Below, in pieces: positions 1,956 to 26,060 of a stretch of DNA of 64,000 bases. The stretch's first letter is position 1. Every line of letters begins with the position of its first letter. Source of the stretch: Oscillospiraceae bacterium (lineage in GTDB: Bacteria; Bacillota; Clostridia; Oscillospirales; Oscillospiraceae); contig CADCKQ010000001.1 in the NCBI GenBank assembly GCA_902802045.1, positions 310,759 through 374,758 on the forward strand, written 5' to 3'. The notes below the pieces were generated by a model that searched no databases, had not been told where the DNA came from, and saw only the letters and a list, made by a program, of their open reading frames with translations. Position numbers and translations under genes: made by a program.

Positions 1956-3173
1956 ATGCCGGAAGTAAATTACAAAGTAGGTCTGATCGGAAAACTTGAC
2001 ATGCTCAAATTCAAGAACATGCCCAAAGTCCGGAATGCAGCCATTGACGCCTCTCCCTCTACTCCTTTGAAGGGTATTGAACCGACCAATGAAAAAGCAA
2101 AAGCCCATCACCCCAAGCAGATAGAATTCGTCATAGACGATATTCTACAGAACGGTCCCGACGCGAAAACCGTAATCCTGAAGAAAAAAGACGGGGAGAG
2201 ACTCCCGCTTTTCAGGGCAGGCCAGTATATAAGCGTTGACGTGCCCATAGGAACGACTCACACCACAAGATCATATTCCATATGTTCTTCTCCCGCTCTG
2301 GCCAAGGAAGGGATATATCACATAACCGTCAAGCGCGACGACGCGGGGTTTGTAAGCCCGTATATCCAGGACAACTGGAAAAAGGGAGATACCGTCATTG
2401 CCTCCGGCCCCCAGGGTCACCTGTACTACGAACCCATAAGAGATGCAAAGAAGGTTGTAGCCCTTGCGGGAGGCTCCGGTATCACGCCGTTTATGGGTAT
2501 GGCTTATGCCATTCGTGACAGCTATGAAGATTTCGACCTGACTGTCATATTCGGATCCAGGACCGAGGACGCCATAGTCTACAGAAAGGAACTCGACGAA
2601 GTCTGTGCGGCATGCGATAAGGTACATGTTGTCCATGTACTCTCCGATGAGGAAAAAGAGGGTTTTGAACACGGCTTCATAAGCGCGGATCTTATCAGAA
2701 AATATGGCGGAGACGGTGAATTTTCAATATTCATGTGCGGTCCGCAGGCTATGTACAACTTCCTTGACAGCGAGATCGCAAAACTCGGCTTAAGAAAGAA
2801 GTTTGTCCGCCGTGAGCTGTTCGGAGCGATCAAAGATCCCTGGAACCAGCCGGGATATCCCGAGGAGATCCGCGGAAGGACCTTCAATCTCCATGTCGTA
2901 CAATGCGGAAAAGAATACGACATTCCCGCGTCTGCCGACGAATCTCTTATGGTCGCATGTGAACGCGCCGGTCTTGTTGTACCCTCGAGGTGCAGAAGCG
3001 GCGAGTGCGGCTGGTGCCACAGCAAGCTGCTCTCCGGAGATGTCTTTATCCCGGAAAAGACGGACGGAAGAAGAGCTGCGGACCTTGATTACGGCTATAT
3101 CCACATCTGCTCAAGTTTCCCTGCAAGCGACGTTGCGATAGACGTCCCGGCAAAACCTGTTGATACGCAATAA
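1956..3173 (+). CDS. FNR-like flavin reductase with C-terminal plant-type [2Fe-2S] ferredoxin domain (copy 1)
   Basis: RSYSICS (RxYS FAD motif), GGSGITP (NAD(P) motif) and CRSGECGWC...IC (Cx4Cx2C...C). Starts 4 nt after the stop of the CrtI-like gene, behind GAGGAGG. Confidence 0.8.
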   Translation: MPEVNYKVGLIGKLDMLKFKNMPKVRNAAIDASPSTPLKGIEPTNEKAKAHHPKQIEFVIDDILQNGPDAKTVILKKKDGERLPLFRAGQYISVDVPIGTTHTTRSYSICSSPALAKEGIYHITVKRDDAGFVSPYIQDNWKKGDTVIASGPQGHLYYEPIRDAKKVVALAGGSGITPFMGMAYAIRDSYEDFDLTVIFGSRTEDAIVYRKELDEVCAACDKVHVVHVLSDEEKEGFEHGFISADLIRKYGGDGEFSIFMCGPQAMYNFLDSEIAKLGLRKKFVRRELFGAIKDPWNQPGYPEEIRGRTFNLHVVQCGKEYDIPASADESLMVACERAGLVVPSRCRSGECGWCHSKLLSGDVFIPEKTDGRRAADLDYGYIHICSSFPASDVAIDVPAKPVDTQ

Positions 3174-3189
3174 CATGCAATAACGAATT

Positions 3190-3226
3190 GCCGGCAGCGG
3201 TGGCTTGCCGCTGCCGGCTTCTTTGA
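3190..3226 (+). terminator. Hairpin GCCGGCAGCGG/CCGCTGCCGGC followed by TTCTTTG; weak or leaky intrinsic terminator
   Basis: 11-bp GC-rich stem (3190-3200 / 3208-3218) with an interrupted T tract. It ends 5 nt before ATG 3231. Confidence 0.5.
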
Positions 3227-3230
3227 AAGT

Positions 3231-4565
3231 ATGGGGCTTCAGACTGAAAGAACGGAAACAAAAAAAGAAGAACTGATCAATCAGCTTTCATCGGATATAA
3301 TAAAGCTCTCAGTAAGCAGGCTTGCCGTCGACCTGAGGTTTATTCAGCGCGCCGTTTTAAGACTGAAGCCTTTAGCTGTAAAGGAAGTCTCTCTTGCGAG
3401 CGACGGCAGAGTATTGTATTACGATCCGATGCATATCCTGAATATGTACAAATATGACGAGAATGCCGTAAACCGGGATATTCTCCACACGGTCCTGCAT
3501 CTGATCTTCCTTCACGGTTATGTCGGCAAAGATGTCAGGCGCGAGTATTGGGATCTTGCGACAGATATCTCCGTCGAAAACGTCATCAATTCTATGGATA
3601 TACCCTGCCTCAATTCCGGCAGGAAATATGCGCAGCTCGCCTATATAAAGCTTCTGGAAACAGAAGTCGGGGAACTCACTGCTGAGAAGATCTGCGCTTT
3701 TTTCAGAAAAAGCGGTATGTCCGTGCAGGAAGCTGAAGAAATACGAAGAAGTTTTCAGGCGGACTCGCACGGTTTCTGGTGGGGAAAATATGATAAAAAT
3801 GCCAGGAAGATCGAAGTCCCTGACAGCAGGGTCTGGGAAGAAGTATCCAGAAAAGTGCAGAAGGAGCTCGAATTTCTGAATAAAGACGAGGACAGCCCTC
3901 TTGTACAGAATCTCAGGGCTATCTCCCGCGCAAAATACAGCTATACCGATCTCTTAAGGCGTTTCAGCGTGTGGGGCGAGGCCCTGCATATTTCTGACGA
4001 GGAGTTCGACAACAACTATTATATGTTCGGGCTCGATACATACGGTAACATGCCTCTCATTGAGCCTCTGGAATACCGGGAACAGAAAAGGGTAAGAGAC
4101 TTTGTCATAGCTGTAGATACCTCAGGTTCAGTCAGAGGCGATATGGTTCAGAAGTTCATTCAGCATACACACGATATACTGGTCAAACAGGAAAACTTCT
4201 TTACAAAAGTCAATATACATATTTTCCAGTGCGACGACCGCATCAGGGATGAAAGTGTCATCAAAACACGCGAGGATTTCAGAAAATACATGGAAACTCT
4301 GGAGATCAAAGGCTTGGGCAGGACTGATTTCAGGCCTGTTTTCAACAGAGTCGACGAGCTGGTTTCAGAACATGAGTTTTCAGATCTCAAAGGTATTATC
4401 TATTTTACGGACGGCCTCGGAACTTTTCCCTCCAAAAAACCGGCTTATGAGACGGCATTCATTATAAGCAGTGAGAGCTCCGAAGTGCCTGATCTTCCGC
4501 CGTGGGCGATACATATGACGCTCAGCGAAAACCAGCTCGAACGGGAAATGAGAGCTGCTGTATGA
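3231..4565 (+). CDS. DUF2201-type protein: N-terminal putative metallopeptidase-like domain plus C-terminal VWA-like domain
   Basis: VIAVDTSGSVRG (MIDAS DxSGS), GRTDF and IYFTDG in the C-terminal half. The N-terminal half has DILHTVLHLIFLHGY...WDLATDISVEN, with HTVLH where this family normally shows HExxH. Confidence 0.7.
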   Translation: MGLQTERTETKKEELINQLSSDIIKLSVSRLAVDLRFIQRAVLRLKPLAVKEVSLASDGRVLYYDPMHILNMYKYDENAVNRDILHTVLHLIFLHGYVGKDVRREYWDLATDISVENVINSMDIPCLNSGRKYAQLAYIKLLETEVGELTAEKICAFFRKSGMSVQEAEEIRRSFQADSHGFWWGKYDKNARKIEVPDSRVWEEVSRKVQKELEFLNKDEDSPLVQNLRAISRAKYSYTDLLRRFSVWGEALHISDEEFDNNYYMFGLDTYGNMPLIEPLEYREQKRVRDFVIAVDTSGSVRGDMVQKFIQHTHDILVKQENFFTKVNIHIFQCDDRIRDESVIKTREDFRKYMETLEIKGLGRTDFRPVFNRVDELVSEHEFSDLKGIIYFTDGLGTFPSKKPAYETAFIISSESSEVPDLPPWAIHMTLSENQLEREMRAAV

Positions 4566-5383
4566 AAAAGATTATTCCGTACGGCACCGAAGCCATTGGG
4601 GACGGAGCTTTCTCCGACGACTCCGAAATAACGGAGGTCGAGATCCCTGATACCGTTTTTTCAATAGGCGAGGAAGCTTTTTACGGCTGTACTGCTTTAA
4701 GATCGGTAATTCTCCCGCGGAGTCTAACCGAGATATCTGCGGCAGTCTTTGCCGGCTGTGAATCTCTCAAGGAAATAACGCTTCCTGAAGCTCTTGTCAG
4801 GATAAGTGACGGAGCTTTTCTCGGGTGCAGTTCGCTCAGATCCGTTACTTTTCCTTCAGGCCTTAAGGAGCTCGGAGATATGGCATTCTGGGGTTCCGGG
4901 CTGATTTCCACTGATCTGCCGGAAAATGTATCATATATCGGTGAGCGCTGCTTCTGGGAGTGCAAGGATCTGAAAAGTGTTTTTATCCCAAATAAGGATA
5001 CAATTATAGGTGATGCAGCCTTCGGTGAATGTGAGAGCCTTATGTCGGGCTTTATTGCCCCGGGGTACTGCGGCAAAACCGACAATGCCTCACTTCTGCA
5101 ATATACTCTGCTCTGGTGCACGAGCATAGGGCTGCATGATGAAGCTGTATCCGTCAAAGCATCGGACTATATACGGGCCAATGAGTCGCTCGTTATGGAA
5201 CATATTCTGAAAAGAAATATTATACCCGCTATGACCGGCATCGCCAGGCTCGGACTGTTAAAGCCGGAGAATATCCGCAAATACGTCAGCGAGGCATCCG
5301 CAAAAAACGAGCGCGAGATCACCGCTCTGCTGCTCGGAATGCTTAAAGACACGAAATATACAGATACGGAGTTTGATCTATGA
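4562..5383 (+). CDS. Cytoplasmic BspA-type (LRR_5) leucine-rich-repeat protein with a ~90-aa helical tail
   Basis: About 7 repeats of roughly 23 aa of the form I..gAF.gC.sL.s..lP. There is no signal peptide. ATG 4562 overlaps the upstream TGA (ATGA). The 4502 start in the ORF track is an in-frame extension inside the VWA gene. Confidence 0.75.
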   Translation: MKKIIPYGTEAIGDGAFSDDSEITEVEIPDTVFSIGEEAFYGCTALRSVILPRSLTEISAAVFAGCESLKEITLPEALVRISDGAFLGCSSLRSVTFPSGLKELGDMAFWGSGLISTDLPENVSYIGERCFWECKDLKSVFIPNKDTIIGDAAFGECESLMSGFIAPGYCGKTDNASLLQYTLLWCTSIGLHDEAVSVKASDYIRANESLVMEHILKRNIIPAMTGIARLGLLKPENIRKYVSEASAKNEREITALLLGMLKDTKYTDTEFDL

Positions 5384-6837
5384 ATATCAGAGAAGCAAAG
5401 CAGCAGATAAAAAACACCATGCGCGCTTATTTCGCGAAGGATGAGTACGGCAATTTCCTTCTGCCGGTTGAGGAACAGCGCCCTATCTTTCTCATCGGGC
5501 CTCCCGGCATAGGCAAAACCGCAATTGTTGCCGAGGTCGCGTCCGAGCTCGGAGTGGGCATGCTCTCCTATTCCATGACCCATCATACGCGTCAGAGTGC
5601 GCTTGGCCTTCCCATGATCGAGACAAAGATATATGACGGGCGGGAGTACAAGGTTACGGAGTATACGATGTCCGAGATCATCGCATCGATCTATGACCTG
5701 ATGGAAGACAGCGGAGTGAAAGAGGGCATTCTCTTTCTGGATGAAATAAACTGCGTCTCGGAAACCCTGACCCCTGCCATGCTGCAGTTTTTACAGTTCA
5801 AGACTTTTGGGAAACACGCTGTACCGGGCGGATGGCTGGTCGTGACAGCCGGAAACCCGCCCGAATATAACAGAAACGTGCGTGAATTCGATACCGTGAC
5901 ATGGGACCGCCTCAAACGCATTGACGTGGAACCCGATTTCGGAGTCTGGAAGGATTATGCGCTTGAGATGGGAGTTCATCCGGCTGTGCTCAGCTATCTT
6001 GAGATCAGAAAAGAAAACTTCTTTAAAGTGGAAAACACTCCGGACGGCAGAGCTTTTGTAACAGCCCGGGCCTGGAAAGATCTCAGCGATATCATTAAGC
6101 TTTACGAGCGCTGCTCTGTTGAAACCGATCAGAATCTCTTCGGTCAATATCTTCAGGATAAGGAGATATCCGAGGATTTCGGCGATTATTTCGAACTCTG
6201 GTGCAGATACAGATCCGATTACAGAGTACCGGAGATTCTGGCAGGGAAAGCTTCTGAGGAGATAAAAAAACGGGCGTCCGATGCACCGTTCGACGAGCAG
6301 CTGAGTCTCCTCGGGCTTTTGAAGGACAATGTCTTCTCCGATATAAGGCAGGTAATCGAAACGGAGGATACTTTAAAAGAACTCCATGATATTCTTGCAG
6401 GCGTTCGTGACGGTGCTGCGCTGGGAGATGAATTGGTAGCTGAAAAGGAAAAATTATCAAAAGCCGAGAAGCGCGGCGCACTGCCTCCGAATCTGCACAG
6501 ACGCTTTGATTTTATTATCGGCTTCTTAACCGAAAGCCTTGACCGGCGTTTTGAAGATACGCGTTCCTCATTCGGCAAACAGGTCTCCGCAATGAAAGAG
6601 CGTGCCGCTGATGCAGGTGAAAAGCTTTCAAACCTTTTCAATTTCTGCGAAGAAGTCTGGCCTGAGGGGCAGGAACTTCTTATACTGGTGACTGATCTCA
6701 CTGCAACAGTGTATACGGCGCGATTCATTGCACGTTACGGAAGCCGGGAATACTACCGGCACAACGAGGAGCTCATGTTTTACGAGCGTCAGACCGAAAT
6801 AATAAAGGAACTGAAGCAGCTGGACATGGGTCTTTAA
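5380..6837 (+). CDS. MoxR-like AAA+ (AAA_5) ATPase with a long helical C-terminal extension
   Basis: Walker A GPPGIGKT and Walker B ILFLDEIN. The last ~250 aa are charged and helical. ATGA overlap with the LRR gene stop. Confidence 0.8.
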   Translation: MNIREAKQQIKNTMRAYFAKDEYGNFLLPVEEQRPIFLIGPPGIGKTAIVAEVASELGVGMLSYSMTHHTRQSALGLPMIETKIYDGREYKVTEYTMSEIIASIYDLMEDSGVKEGILFLDEINCVSETLTPAMLQFLQFKTFGKHAVPGGWLVVTAGNPPEYNRNVREFDTVTWDRLKRIDVEPDFGVWKDYALEMGVHPAVLSYLEIRKENFFKVENTPDGRAFVTARAWKDLSDIIKLYERCSVETDQNLFGQYLQDKEISEDFGDYFELWCRYRSDYRVPEILAGKASEEIKKRASDAPFDEQLSLLGLLKDNVFSDIRQVIETEDTLKELHDILAGVRDGAALGDELVAEKEKLSKAEKRGALPPNLHRRFDFIIGFLTESLDRRFEDTRSSFGKQVSAMKERAADAGEKLSNLFNFCEEVWPEGQELLILVTDLTATVYTARFIARYGSREYYRHNEELMFYERQTEIIKELKQLDMGL

Positions 6838-6851
6838 AATATAACAGAAAA

Positions 6852-6890
6852 GGGCTGATCCGGAATGAAAATTCGGATCAGCCCTGATTT
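6852..6890. terminator. Bidirectional intrinsic terminator between convergent genes
   Basis: GGGCTGATCCG (6852-6862) pairs with CGGATCAGCCC (6874-6884), flanked by A-rich and T-rich tracts. Confidence 0.6.
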
Positions 6891-6899
6891 ATTGCCGAT

Positions 6900-8720
6900 T
6901 TATCTGTTTTTCATTACAGCTTTCATTCTGAGGCTGTGGTCAAGGATGGATTTGCGGATCCTGAGGTTCTCGGGCGTTACTTCCAAAAGCTCGTCATCCG
7001 CAAGAAACTCGAGACACTGCTCAAGGCTGAGCTTTCTGGCCGGAACGAGCCTCAGCGCCTCATCGCTGCCGGAGGCTCTGGTGTTGGTCAGGTGCTTCGT
7101 GCGGCATACATTGACGGGCACATCGTCAGATTTGTTTGTGACTCCGACAACCATTCCGCCGTAGACCTTCGTTCCCGGTGTAATGAACATCGCGCCCCTC
7201 TCCTGAGCGTTCCATATACCGTAGGCCACCGCTTCTCCTGTCTCATGAGCTATCAGAGATCCTGTCGTCCGTCTCGCGATATCGCCTTTATAAGGCTCGT
7301 ATCTCTCAAATACAGAGGCCAGTATGCCCTCGCCCTTTGTATCTGTCAGAAATTCGTTTCTGTATCCGAAAAGTCCTCTCGACGGGACAAGAAACTCCAG
7401 CTTCATTCTGTTTCCGACAGGTGTCATCTCCACGAATTCGCCTTTTCTCTGCCCGAGCTTTTCCATGACGGAGCCCATAAATTCGGAAGGCACGTCGACG
7501 ACGACTCTTTCTATCGGCTCACAGGTCTTTCCGTCTATCTCTTTATACAGCACTCTGGGCGGGGAGACCTGGAATTCATAGCCCTCCCGGCGCATCGTCT
7601 CAATGAGTATTGAAAGGCTCATCTCGCCTCTGCCGGCTACATTGAAGCTGTCTGTGCTGTTTTCGACATCCGTTACTCTCAACGAGACATCTTTCAGAGT
7701 CTCTCTGTGAAGCCTGTCGGAGATCTGTCTCGAGGTAACGAATTTCCCTTCTTTTCCGGCAAAGGGACTGTCGTTGACAGAGAAGGTCATTTCCATGGTA
7801 GGCGCGCCAATCTTCACGAAGGGCAGCGGTTCCGCGTGGCCCCTCGCGCAGATCGTATCGCCGATAGTGACGTCTCCGATGCCGCTCATGGCAATAATAT
7901 TGCCTGCAGAGGCCTCTGTAACGGCTTCCCTTCCGAGTCCCTCGAACTGGTACAGCGATACCGCCTTGGCTTTTATCGAAGGGGCATCGGGGTCATGCCA
8001 GTTGCACAGCTCGATCTCTTCATTCTGACGGATGGTCCCGCGCTCTATTCTGCCGACAGCGATCCTTCCGACGTATTCGTTGTAATCGATATTGGAGACC
8101 AGCATCTGGAACGGTGCAGTCTCATCGCATTCGGGCTCGGGAATATACTCGAGGATAGTCTCAAAAAGAGGCTTGAGGTCGGTCCCGACGACATCCGGCG
8201 AATAAGAGGCGGTTCCGTTTCTTCCGGAGCAGAAGAGCATGGGGGAGTCGAGCTGTTCATCGGTCGCGTTCAGATCCATCAGAAGCTCGAGTATTTCATC
8301 GACTACCTCGTGTATCCTCTGGTCAGGTCTGTCTATCTTGTTGACGACGACAATGACCCTGTGTCCCATCTCCAGCGCTCTCGAGAGAACGAATCTCGTC
8401 TGGGGCATGGGACCTTCCGCGGCATCGACAAGCAGGATTACGCCGTTTACCATCTTAAGTATACGCTCGACCTCGCCTCCGAAATCGGCGTGGCCCGGAG
8501 TGTCGACTATGTTGATCTTTGTATCGCCGTAACGGACGGCCGTATTCTTGGCCATTATCGTTATCCCGCGTTCGCGCTCGAGATCGTTTGAGTCCATGAC
8601 TCTCTCGACGATCTCCTGGTTTTCCCTGTATATGCCCGACTGCTTGAGCATCTCGTCCACAAGCGTCGTCTTGCCGTGGTCGACGTGGGCTATGATCGCA
8701 ATATTTCTCAATTTATCCAT
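6900..8720 (-). CDS. typA: Translational GTPase TypA/BipA
   Basis: NIAIIAHVDHGKTTLVD, DTPGHADFGGEV, NKIDR; 606 aa. Confidence 0.95.
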   Translation of the reverse strand: MDKLRNIAIIAHVDHGKTTLVDEMLKQSGIYRENQEIVERVMDSNDLERERGITIMAKNTAVRYGDTKINIVDTPGHADFGGEVERILKMVNGVILLVDAAEGPMPQTRFVLSRALEMGHRVIVVVNKIDRPDQRIHEVVDEILELLMDLNATDEQLDSPMLFCSGRNGTASYSPDVVGTDLKPLFETILEYIPEPECDETAPFQMLVSNIDYNEYVGRIAVGRIERGTIRQNEEIELCNWHDPDAPSIKAKAVSLYQFEGLGREAVTEASAGNIIAMSGIGDVTIGDTICARGHAEPLPFVKIGAPTMEMTFSVNDSPFAGKEGKFVTSRQISDRLHRETLKDVSLRVTDVENSTDSFNVAGRGEMSLSILIETMRREGYEFQVSPPRVLYKEIDGKTCEPIERVVVDVPSEFMGSVMEKLGQRKGEFVEMTPVGNRMKLEFLVPSRGLFGYRNEFLTDTKGEGILASVFERYEPYKGDIARRTTGSLIAHETGEAVAYGIWNAQERGAMFITPGTKVYGGMVVGVTNKSDDVPVNVCRTKHLTNTRASGSDEALRLVPARKLSLEQCLEFLADDELLEVTPENLRIRKSILDHSLRMKAVMKNR

Positions 8721-25872: not shown

Positions 25873-25949
25873 GGCCGTGTAGTTCAGCTGGTTAGAACGC
25901 CGGCCTGTCACGCCGGAGGTCGAGGGTTCAAGTCCCTTCGCGGTCGCCA
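25873..25949 (+). tRNA. tRNA-Asp (anticodon GTC), CCA encoded
   Basis: Hand-folded cloverleaf: acceptor GGCCGTG/CGCGGTC, anticodon arm CCGGC-CTGTCAC-GCCGG, T arm GAGGG-TTCAAGT-CCCTT. Confidence 0.9.
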
Positions 25950-25953
25950 CGCA

Positions 25954-25984
25954 ATATGCCCCTTAATCAGGGGCATATGTTTTC
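25954..25984 (+). terminator. Terminator-like hairpin between the two tRNAs
   Basis: ATATGCCCC ttaatca GGGGCATAT followed by GTTTTC. It ends exactly at the 5' end of tRNA-Thr. Confidence 0.4.

Positions 25985-26060
<76 letters not shown>

Follow-up and report, generated by a model that had tools for sequence, protein, structure and literature searches.

A conserved triad of MoxR-like ATPase, VWA protein and leucine-rich repeat subunit in gut and rumen Clostridia, with a candidate redox client in one clade

The MoxR-type AAA+ ATPases and their von Willebrand factor A (VWA) partners form widespread chaperones, and for most of them the client protein and the way in which it is chosen are not established. 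The present study concerns a 64,000-nucleotide stretch of an Oscillospiraceae bacterium (contig CADCKQ010000001.1 of assembly GCA_902802045.1, positions 310,759 to 374,758), hereafter the window, in which genes for a DUF2201-type VWA protein, a leucine-rich repeat (LRR) protein and a MoxR-like AAA+ ATPase follow one another on the same strand. This triad is best read as a previously undescribed module that would act like a MoxR/VWA chaperone, with a three-part logic like that of CobS/CobT/CobN or Mg-chelatase. In the searchable literature, no paper on the triad was found, whether under DUF2201 or under LRR genes in operons with AAA and VWA genes, and none of the DUF2201 literature found was about function.

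The MoxR proteins have been described as chaperone-like maturation factors that work with VWA cofactors (PMC3893208). [quoted passage not shown] In CobSTN, the third subunit sits on the face of the VWA adaptor opposite to the motor ring (bioRxiv 10.64898/2026.07.21.739949). The features of the window that are compared with these systems are as follows, all on the forward strand.

3231-4565, +: DUF2201-type VWA gene, open reading frame (ORF) of 444 aa
3486-3515, +: HTVLHLIFLH, residues 86-95 of the VWA protein (HxxxHxxxxH, with the Glu of HExxH absent)
4116-4130, +: MIDAS motif DTSGS (DxSxS), residues 296-300 of the VWA protein
4562-5383, +: LRR-tail gene, ORF of 273 aa from ATG 4562
4562-5071, +: BspA-type LRR domain, about residues 1-170 (Pfam LRR_5, 156 bits)
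5072-5383, +: helical tail domain, about residues 171-273 (tail hidden Markov model, HMM; no Pfam family)
5372-5380, +: terminal F-D-L-COOH, the C-terminus of the third subunit
5380-6837, +: MoxR-like AAA+ gene, ORF of 485 aa
5497-5520, +: Walker A motif GPPGIGKT, residues 40-47 of the AAA protein
5572-5613, +: invariant insert SMTHHTRQSALGLP, from the alignment of AAA homologues
5731-5751, +: Walker B motif LFLDEIN, residues 118-124 of the AAA protein
5845-5913, +: MoxR-like NPPEY...WDRL segment

The triad resembles the pairs NorQ/NorD, CbbQ/CbbO, CoxD/CoxE and RavA/ViaA in that an AAA_5/MoxR-like ATPase gene stands beside the gene of a MIDAS-intact VWA protein. As in NorD, an N-terminal domain and a disordered linker precede the VWA domain of this protein, and the genes of the window's clade are linked with a cofactor-requiring redox enzyme. 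In contrast to the known pairs, the triad has a nearly always present third subunit composed of LRR and tail, the N domain of its VWA protein is a zincin-like pseudo-peptidase (DUF2201_N), its ATPase is longer by a helical extension of ~235 aa and has an invariant insert, MTHHTRQSALGLP, and most of the family is without a conserved client gene nearby. Judged without a phylogeny, the ATPase belongs clearly to none of the named MoxR subfamilies (MRP, RavA, CGN, APE2220, APE0892, PA2707, YehL). A MoxR-related motor, a ring-inserting VWA/MIDAS adaptor and a substrate-holding third subunit are combined in CobS/CobT/CobN and ChlI/ChlD/ChlH (bioRxiv 10.64898/2026.07.21.739949), and the parts of the triad, as judged from gene neighbourhoods, would follow a like plan. 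Unlike CobN and ChlH, which are tetrapyrrole-binding proteins of ~140 kDa, the third subunit of the triad is a small LRR-plus-tail protein; the triad also differs from the three-subunit chelatases in having no link to tetrapyrrole genes and no AAA-like N domain in its VWA protein.

The conservation of the triad was surveyed in 80 metagenome loci, collected by the AAA profile, and 5 genome loci, and all ORFs were searched with the window proteins (loci are cited below by L numbers). Both the VWA and the AAA gene were present in 74 loci, 67 with complete context and 7 with truncated context. In 65 of the 67 complete loci, a third gene encoding LRR and/or the ~100-aa helical tail adjoins the VWA-AAA pair on the same strand. 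At nearly all surveyed loci, the gene directly upstream of AAA is that of the VWA protein, and the adjoining same-strand gene encodes an LRR_5 protein of ~300-400 aa in most of them. The gene orders at the complete loci are listed below.

Third gene-VWA-AAA: 41 loci
VWA-AAA-third gene: 18 loci
VWA-third gene-AAA: 5 loci
Two third genes at the locus: 1 locus
No third gene on the same strand: 2 loci (L058, L002)

At the first of the last two loci, an 801-aa gene positive for both tail and LRR lies directly upstream on the opposite strand. At the second, from a Blautia metagenome-assembled genome (MAG), a gene for a sodium:neurotransmitter-symporter-like transporter (6489-7904) sits between the VWA and AAA genes, and the sole candidate for a third gene is a divergent ORF of 467 aa on the opposite strand, which matched neither Pfam nor the tail HMM.

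A further sample of 10 distinct relatives of the window's clade, with AAA proteins 58-68% identical, all showed the order VWA-LRR-AAA, and the 4-nt overlap of the LRR and AAA genes is kept in 9 of them. In the window, the ATGA overlaps reported earlier were confirmed at 4562-4565 (VWA/LRR) and 5380-5383 (LRR/AAA). Across relatives, identity amounts to 43-70% for the AAA protein, 30-57% for the VWA protein and ~20% for the third subunit outside its tail. The AAA homologues number in the thousands, are ~485-510 aa long and are named 'AAA family ATPase' in Clostridiales, Lachnospiraceae and Oscillospiraceae, and a profile search of 1.84 billion representatives returned 795 AAA clusters (50% identity) at E<=1e-30. 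Coverage of named genomes is thin, as a single-sequence scan of genome contigs gave 6 loci. An Oscillospiraceae MAG from goat omasum (L001, L006) has proteins 96-100% identical to those of the window.

The triad thus recurs in dozens of distinct genomes, and it is kept together across many gut and rumen Clostridia and is not an accident of one genome. Since the LRR gene adjoins the pair at nearly all loci and in all clade relatives, it is taken as an integral third component. A sequence-only reading of the window had proposed that the three products belong together and had named absence of the LRR gene from nearly all such pairs as the outcome that would speak against it; the survey found the opposite. 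The same reading had described the LRR gene as inserted between two canonical partners, and this part did not hold as a special event, because the third gene lies upstream in 41 loci and downstream in 18. The position of the LRR gene between VWA and AAA is a feature of the gene order in the window's clade.

The third subunit is the most variable of the three proteins. Its length ranges from 133 to 1290 aa, its LRR part is ~20% identical between lineages, and the LRR is the variable, fast-evolving part of the family. The ~100-aa C-terminal helical domain, by contrast with this part, is common to all 21 aligned third-subunit proteins, so the helical tail that had been proposed for the window protein is real and conserved (about residues 171-273). 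No Pfam family covers the tail in a scan of 21 family members. An HMM of the tail finds the adjoining gene at nearly all loci, including loci where the LRR search had failed, and at L008 and L009 a 308-aa tail-positive protein without a Pfam LRR lies between the VWA and AAA genes. Occasionally, the N-terminal domain fused to the conserved tail is something other than LRR. Among 92 distinct sequences, the tail carries the signature A...g.TE..AlL, its Glu being kept in 82% and its Leu in 93%, and 80 of 85 LRR-tail proteins end in Phi-x-Phi, usually F-x-L-COOH. The stretch ahead of this motif is acidic (EEEF.L) in the window's clade, polybasic (KKKK.F.L) in most loci of the order third gene-VWA-AAA, and D.F..F.L in loci of the order VWA-AAA-third gene, so that the class of charged stretch tracks gene order.

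A hydropathy scan, run in place of a dedicated signal-peptide predictor, detected neither a hydrophobic stretch at the N-terminus nor one like a transmembrane segment in the window protein or in 69 relatives. This agrees with the earlier observation that the LRR protein has no signal peptide, and the protein is predicted to be cytoplasmic. With its strong LRR_5 repeats (156 bits) it is like the BspA-type surface LRR proteins, but unlike these it shows no signal, anchor or transmembrane segment in 70 members, and its repeats are joined to a helical cytoplasmic tail, the gene sharing an operon with that of an ATPase.

The AAA protein scored 34.9 bits with Pfam AAA, 32.4 bits with AAA_5 (cut-off 22) and 27.1 bits with bpMoxR (cut-off 27). 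In 39 AAA homologues, G40, P42, G43, G45, K46, T47, D121, E122 and N159, the last being sensor 1, are invariant, and the NPPEY...WDRL segment and the insert are conserved. The protein thereby has what marks a MoxR-type ATPase, namely an AAA_5 match above cut-off, intact Walker A, Walker B and sensor 1, and an adjoining VWA gene with MIDAS; the assignment made earlier from the motifs GPPGIGKT and LFLDEIN was upheld, and the protein is catalytically competent-looking. In the AlphaFold model (mean pLDDT, predicted local distance difference test, 77.9), the AAA core spans about residues 30-250, and it is followed at about residues 250-485 by an all-helical C-terminal extension with pLDDT near 90, which corresponds to the long helical extension noticed before. 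As to the beta-hairpin insert in helix 2 and the pre-sensor-1 hairpin of MoxR-type ATPases, the model has strands at 80-85 and 88-93, which may form a hairpin before helix 2, ahead of the helix 96-111, and short strands, possibly a small hairpin, before strand 4 (152-157); however, pLDDT falls below 50 at 68-78 and 161-182. Because Foldseek returned generic AAA+ matches (dynein and NorQ among the top ones, HslU, Vps4 and ClpX; E from 1e-4 to 1e-3) with low TM-scores, the clade of the ATPase is not fixed by structure. A sequence search of the PDB with the AAA profile matched P-loop regions only, with Midasin best.

Distant relatives of the AAA core, with 18-28% identity over about residues 30-300, occur in 649 phage records, where they are annotated as ATPase, MoxR ATPase or N4 gp24-like (LR694611.1, here L087; N4-like phages; PA5oct-like jumbo phages; Bacillus phage G). 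For rV5, the annotation shows no VWA gene beside the AAA relative. Seven unverified contigs from human faeces named 'Bacteriophage sp.' carry the AAA gene, and the one examined, MT835935.1 (L101), holds a full LRR-VWA-AAA triad amid genes for a Mur ligase, DegV, an M18 aminopeptidase and an ABC exporter. A phage origin of the triad was considered and rejected, as this contig is a bacterial chromosomal fragment and the true phage matches are distant and confined to the AAA core.

The VWA protein matches DUF2201 with 47.9 bits against a cut-off of 26.4, and is composed of an N-terminal zincin-like domain, a low-confidence linker (residues 179-285 of the window model) and a C-terminal DUF2201-type VWA domain. 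The intact MIDAS motif that had been read in this gene was verified, and DxSxS is present in 68 of 68 distinct VWA homologues. By Foldseek, the VWA part matches integrin I and other VWA domains (E about 1e-5); this domain dominated the search with the whole model, so that no match for the N domain was obtained from it, and a PDB sequence search with the VWA profile gave no match. In two homologues (L004, 6172-8001; L027, 180-2042), an acidic low-complexity insertion of at least ~170 aa lies in the linker between the zincin-like and VWA domains, which is the same region as the low-confidence residues 179-285.

The N domain matches DUF2201_N (PF13203) with 20.5 bits in the window protein, under the cut-off of 23.2, and most close homologues carry a precomputed PF13203 match. 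Where HExxH is the feature of DUF2201_N, the window protein reads HTVLH. The histidines H86, H90 and H95 are invariant in an alignment of 25 homologues, whereas, of 66 locus proteins, 1 has Glu at position 87, and of 120 database homologues none; the residue there is M, T, V, I, L, S, A or G in the clostridial clade. The canonical DUF2201 proteins of Proteobacteria and of their plasmids and phages share with the clostridial proteins the two-domain architecture, the HxxxHxxxxH spacing, a W...D motif (W107 and D112 of the window protein) and DxSxS. They differ in carrying the canonical HExxH, as in HEVWHVAGGH and HEVLHCGNGH of plasmid members, and these plasmid proteins score 166-176 bits with DUF2201_N. 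The earlier claim that the catalytic Glu has been replaced is therefore right as to the canonical motif, which is HExxH in the proteobacterial members; it fails as to a local change, and the possibility raised with it, that HTVLH is simply normal, came true in part, the Glu-less form being the norm in the clostridial clade and not in the proteobacterial members. Because the Glu-less motif is clade-wide against HExxH in the proteobacterial members, the domain is best called an ancient, clade-wide pseudo-peptidase that keeps three His. The three His, W107 and D112 are invariant with the proteobacterial members included, and the metal site is therefore probably retained.

The surroundings of the canonical DUF2201 genes differ too: they are conjugative-plasmid regions with type IV secretion genes close by, and no LRR-tail gene was seen adjoining. 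Canonical HExxH DUF2201_N/DUF2201 proteins are encoded on conjugative plasmids of Burkholderia gladioli (bgla_4p, L088) and Simplicispira suum (L089). On the former, the DUF2201 gene is just upstream of type IV secretion genes and a weak AAA_5-like ATP-binding protein is encoded ~1.9 kb upstream; the gene immediately upstream of DUF2201, 286-309 aa in length, has no Pfam match.

A candidate client is offered by the genes next to the triad. The features upstream of the VWA gene in the window are the following; the two genes were named by Pfam and NCBIfam.

390-1952, +: gene for a CrtI-like FAD oxidoreductase
1956-3173, +: gene for an FNR-type FAD/NAD reductase with a C-terminal 2Fe-2S ferredoxin domain
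3190-3226, +: terminator-like hairpin, stem 3190-3218, then TTCTTTGAAA, with an interrupted U-tract

Orthologues of the CrtI/FNR pair (40-54% identity) adjoin the triad in 9 of 11 distinct clade relatives, window counted, in four arrangements.

Upstream, same strand: window, L093, L098
Downstream, same strand: L092, with 20 nt from the AAA stop to the CrtI start
Downstream, convergent: L094, L095, L099, L100
Upstream, divergent: L097
Absent: L090, L096

On its other side, the triad has different genes in each clade relative. The view of the pair as an incidental neighbour, to which the 80 more distant loci had led, was overturned for the window's clade once the clade relatives were sampled. 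The maturation of the adjacent oxidoreductases, which the sequence-only reading had offered as its alternative, is the better supported reading for this clade, and the triad most likely aids maturation of the neighbouring redox pair rather than acting as an immune sensor.

The hairpin that had been noted before the VWA start was found again, with a stem of 13 bp, 10 of them G-C pairs, and a folding energy of -31.9 kcal/mol (z = -3.3); the VWA ATG at 3231 begins 12 nt after the stem. Terminator hairpins also stand directly before the VWA ATG in L098 (3812-3846) and L093 (1815-1850), and thus in all three cases in which CrtI/FNR lies upstream on the same strand, 6-12 nt from the ATG. With this spacing, neither a promoter nor an obvious Shine-Dalgarno sequence fits in, so the triad may be expressed by read-through of the hairpin; the hairpin itself probably ends or attenuates the CrtI-FNR transcript.

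The CrtI-like enzyme belongs to the CrtI/carotenoid-isomerase family of FAD enzymes, is ~515 aa long and scores far under all NCBIfam equivalog cut-offs. It is always paired with the PaaE-like FNR reductase that bears the C-terminal 2Fe-2S domain (window; L092-L100), and the two form a conserved two-enzyme unit in rumen and gut Clostridia, which may be a C=C bond reductase that comes with an electron donor. A GntR/FCD (GntR/FadR-type) regulator is often encoded beside the pair, with FadR_C matches in two cases. Literature searches on the CrtI/FNR pair found nothing relevant.

From these data, we favour the reading, with a probability of about one half, that the triad is a self-contained ATP-driven MoxR-AAA+/VWA remodelling machine with an LRR specificity subunit, whose likely client is the CrtI/FNR pair. 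The AAA protein would form a hexameric ring on which one VWA protein docks. The third subunit would be held by its tail and C-terminus, on the VWA MIDAS and/or the groove of the dead zincin, or on the AAA ring, and the conserved Glu of the tail, E252 in REITALLL, may, speculatively, serve as a MIDAS ligand. The LRR surface would pick the client protein, and ATP hydrolysis would remodel it, for example so that a cofactor is inserted or a complex assembled. For the lineage of the window, the most likely client would be the CrtI-family flavoenzyme together with the FNR-type 2Fe-2S reductase next door, and the terminator before the VWA start could keep the level of the chaperone below that of the CrtI/FNR enzymes. 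We infer the subunit interactions, the mode of action and the client from the analogy with NorQ/NorD, CbbQ/CbbO and especially CobS/CobT/CobN.

Several observations weigh against this reading. In the 80 more distant loci, neither a CrtI/FNR pair nor another recurrent neighbour was found, and no client is therefore indicated for most of the family. In these loci the flanks are ordinary metabolic and housekeeping genes with occasional recombinases only. Among 73 immediate flanks, a Pfam scan counted 118 families, and no family occurred in more than 3 proteins; BLAST clustering of the flanks found at most 9 of 87 loci sharing a family, these being paralogue-rich (histidine kinases, GTPases, ABC transporters). 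In the window's clade itself, the link with CrtI/FNR could partly be inherited synteny. The assignment of the AAA protein to its clade depends on modest scores (AAA_5 at 32 bits, bpMoxR at threshold, weak Foldseek matches). Charge covariation with the stretch before F-x-L gave compensatory columns at VWA 289 and 312 and AAA 406 and 452, but columns that change the other way are about as many, the signal is confounded by phylogeny, and no docking site was located by it. Furthermore, fast divergence of the LRR beside a conserved engine is also expected of a conflict system.

The alternatives were weighed against the chaperone reading in turn. The LRR-tail protein could itself be the substrate: the F-x-L terminus would be a tag read by the pore of the AAA ring, and unfolding or extraction would free a sequestered partner, making the triad a regulatory switch. 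For NorQD, segments of the partner are described as entering the pore, with a C-terminus touching the ring (PMC13036017). The near-universal Phi-x-Phi terminus of the triad's third subunit (80 of 85 sequences) and the insert SMTHHTRQSALGLP, which takes the place in helix 2 that in related ATPases lines the pore, are in keeping with such a tag. Threading of substrates is not known from MoxR-type ATPases, no protease partner is encoded, and the terminal motif fits a static docking peptide equally well. The present data do not separate this alternative from an adaptor model, and it has a small but real chance of being right.

Another alternative is that the triad is a nucleoside triphosphate (NTP)-dependent conflict or immune system, in which the LRR senses an invader, the MoxR-like ATPase is the switch, and the VWA protein is an adaptor or effector platform. 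The triad shares with the vWA-MoxR ternary conflict systems three components with a MoxR-like ATPase and a vWA protein (PMC7159879), and bpMoxR, a model built from such systems, matches it at the threshold. The LRR subunit diverges fast, with varied size and architecture around a conserved core, distant AAA relatives are common among the phage records, including N4 gp24-like proteins and the rV5 'MoxR ATPase', and canonical DUF2201 proteins are found on conjugative plasmids. However, the third protein of the known ternary systems is a VMAP or beta-propeller protein that bears effector domains such as caspase, trypsin or TIR, and no LRR partner is described there (Kaur et al. 2020, PMC7159879), whereas the third component of the triad is LRR_5 plus tail. 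No effector domain (peptidase, TIR, nuclease and the like) was detected by Pfam in the three proteins, whose sole enzyme-like domain lacks its Glu in 65 of 66 cases, and PADLOC gave no significant match, the best being IetA (E = 3e-4, P-loop only). The family ranges over gut Clostridia in a housekeeping context, the 118 families of its flanks being metabolic or housekeeping with occasional recombinases and no defence genes. The core is 43-70% identical across Lachnospiraceae and Oscillospiraceae, unlike typical defence genes, and the examined 'phage' contig with a full triad is a bacterial fragment. The conflict system is therefore an unlikely reading.

The 'sensor, switch and adaptor' machine that had been proposed for the window is accordingly unsupported. 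Of that earlier interpretation as a whole, the belonging together of the genes, the MoxR-like ATPase, the cytoplasmic LRR and the maturation alternative stood, and the insertion event and the conflict machine fell.

Related to this is the view of the triad as a split cytoplasmic LRR recognition system, widespread in gut Clostridia and NLR-like (after the nucleotide-binding LRR proteins) but spread over three polypeptides, that detects foreign or damaged proteins and in which the CrtI/FNR link is secondary. The conserved tail with its F-x-L terminus would couple a rapidly diversifying LRR receptor to a MoxR/VWA switch. This view seems improbable. In the NLR/STAND proteins themselves, a NACHT or NB-ARC NTPase is fused to the repeat sensor; the ATPase of the triad gave AAA and AAA_5 matches and none to NACHT or NB-ARC, and its LRR is on a separate polypeptide.

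A catalytic role of the zincin-like domain is still harder to sustain. The triad would then be an ATP-coupled metallopeptidase that works through another general base, with substrates delivered by the LRR. The invariance of H86, H90, H95, W107 and D112 and the full HExxH of the canonical relatives fit such a role, but position 87 is variable, no alternative acidic residue was identified beside the motif, and the window protein is under the DUF2201_N cut-off. In zincins, loss of the HExxH Glu normally abolishes hydrolysis. With so variable a residue at the Glu position, a working peptidase is very unlikely. Finally, that the three genes are unrelated neighbours overlapping by chance, as short overlaps are frequent in compact bacterial genomes, is excluded by the neighbourhood survey, given same-strand adjacency in 65 of 67 complete loci and 10 of 10 clade relatives despite three gene orders and unrelated flanks.

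The sequence clusters of the triad family number in the hundreds, in Clostridia that abound in gut and rumen. A separate LRR subunit, exchangeable and bearing a conserved docking tail, appears to confer the specificity, and client selection thereby becomes testable. The triad also provides a clear example of a bacterial LRR protein that is cytoplasmic and has a defined set of partners, and it offers an ancient pseudo-zincin that seems to keep its metal ligands. For the window's clade, a candidate client is at hand in the CrtI/RetSat-like flavoenzyme and the FNR-type reductase paired with it, which may matter for metabolism in the rumen and gut.

Some further observations concern the surroundings of the triad. 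In the goat-omasum MAG of the same species (L001, 1411-2867, just upstream of the window start), an ORF of 195 aa like an extracytoplasmic function (ECF)-type sigma factor and an ORF of 291 aa are both divergent from the CrtI-like gene; the latter has one hydrophobic segment and is possibly an anti-sigma factor. A GntR regulator is absent from this upstream region, unlike in several relatives. Elsewhere in the 64-kb window, tandem tRNA-Asp(GTC) and tRNA-Thr(GGT) genes at 25873-26060 are the sole Rfam and ARAGORN matches. On the 3' side of the AAA gene lies a convergent TypA/BipA gene (6900-8720), and a 14-bp hairpin at 6851-6885, between the AAA stop at 6837 and the TypA/BipA stop at 6900, is probably a bidirectional terminator shared by the two genes.

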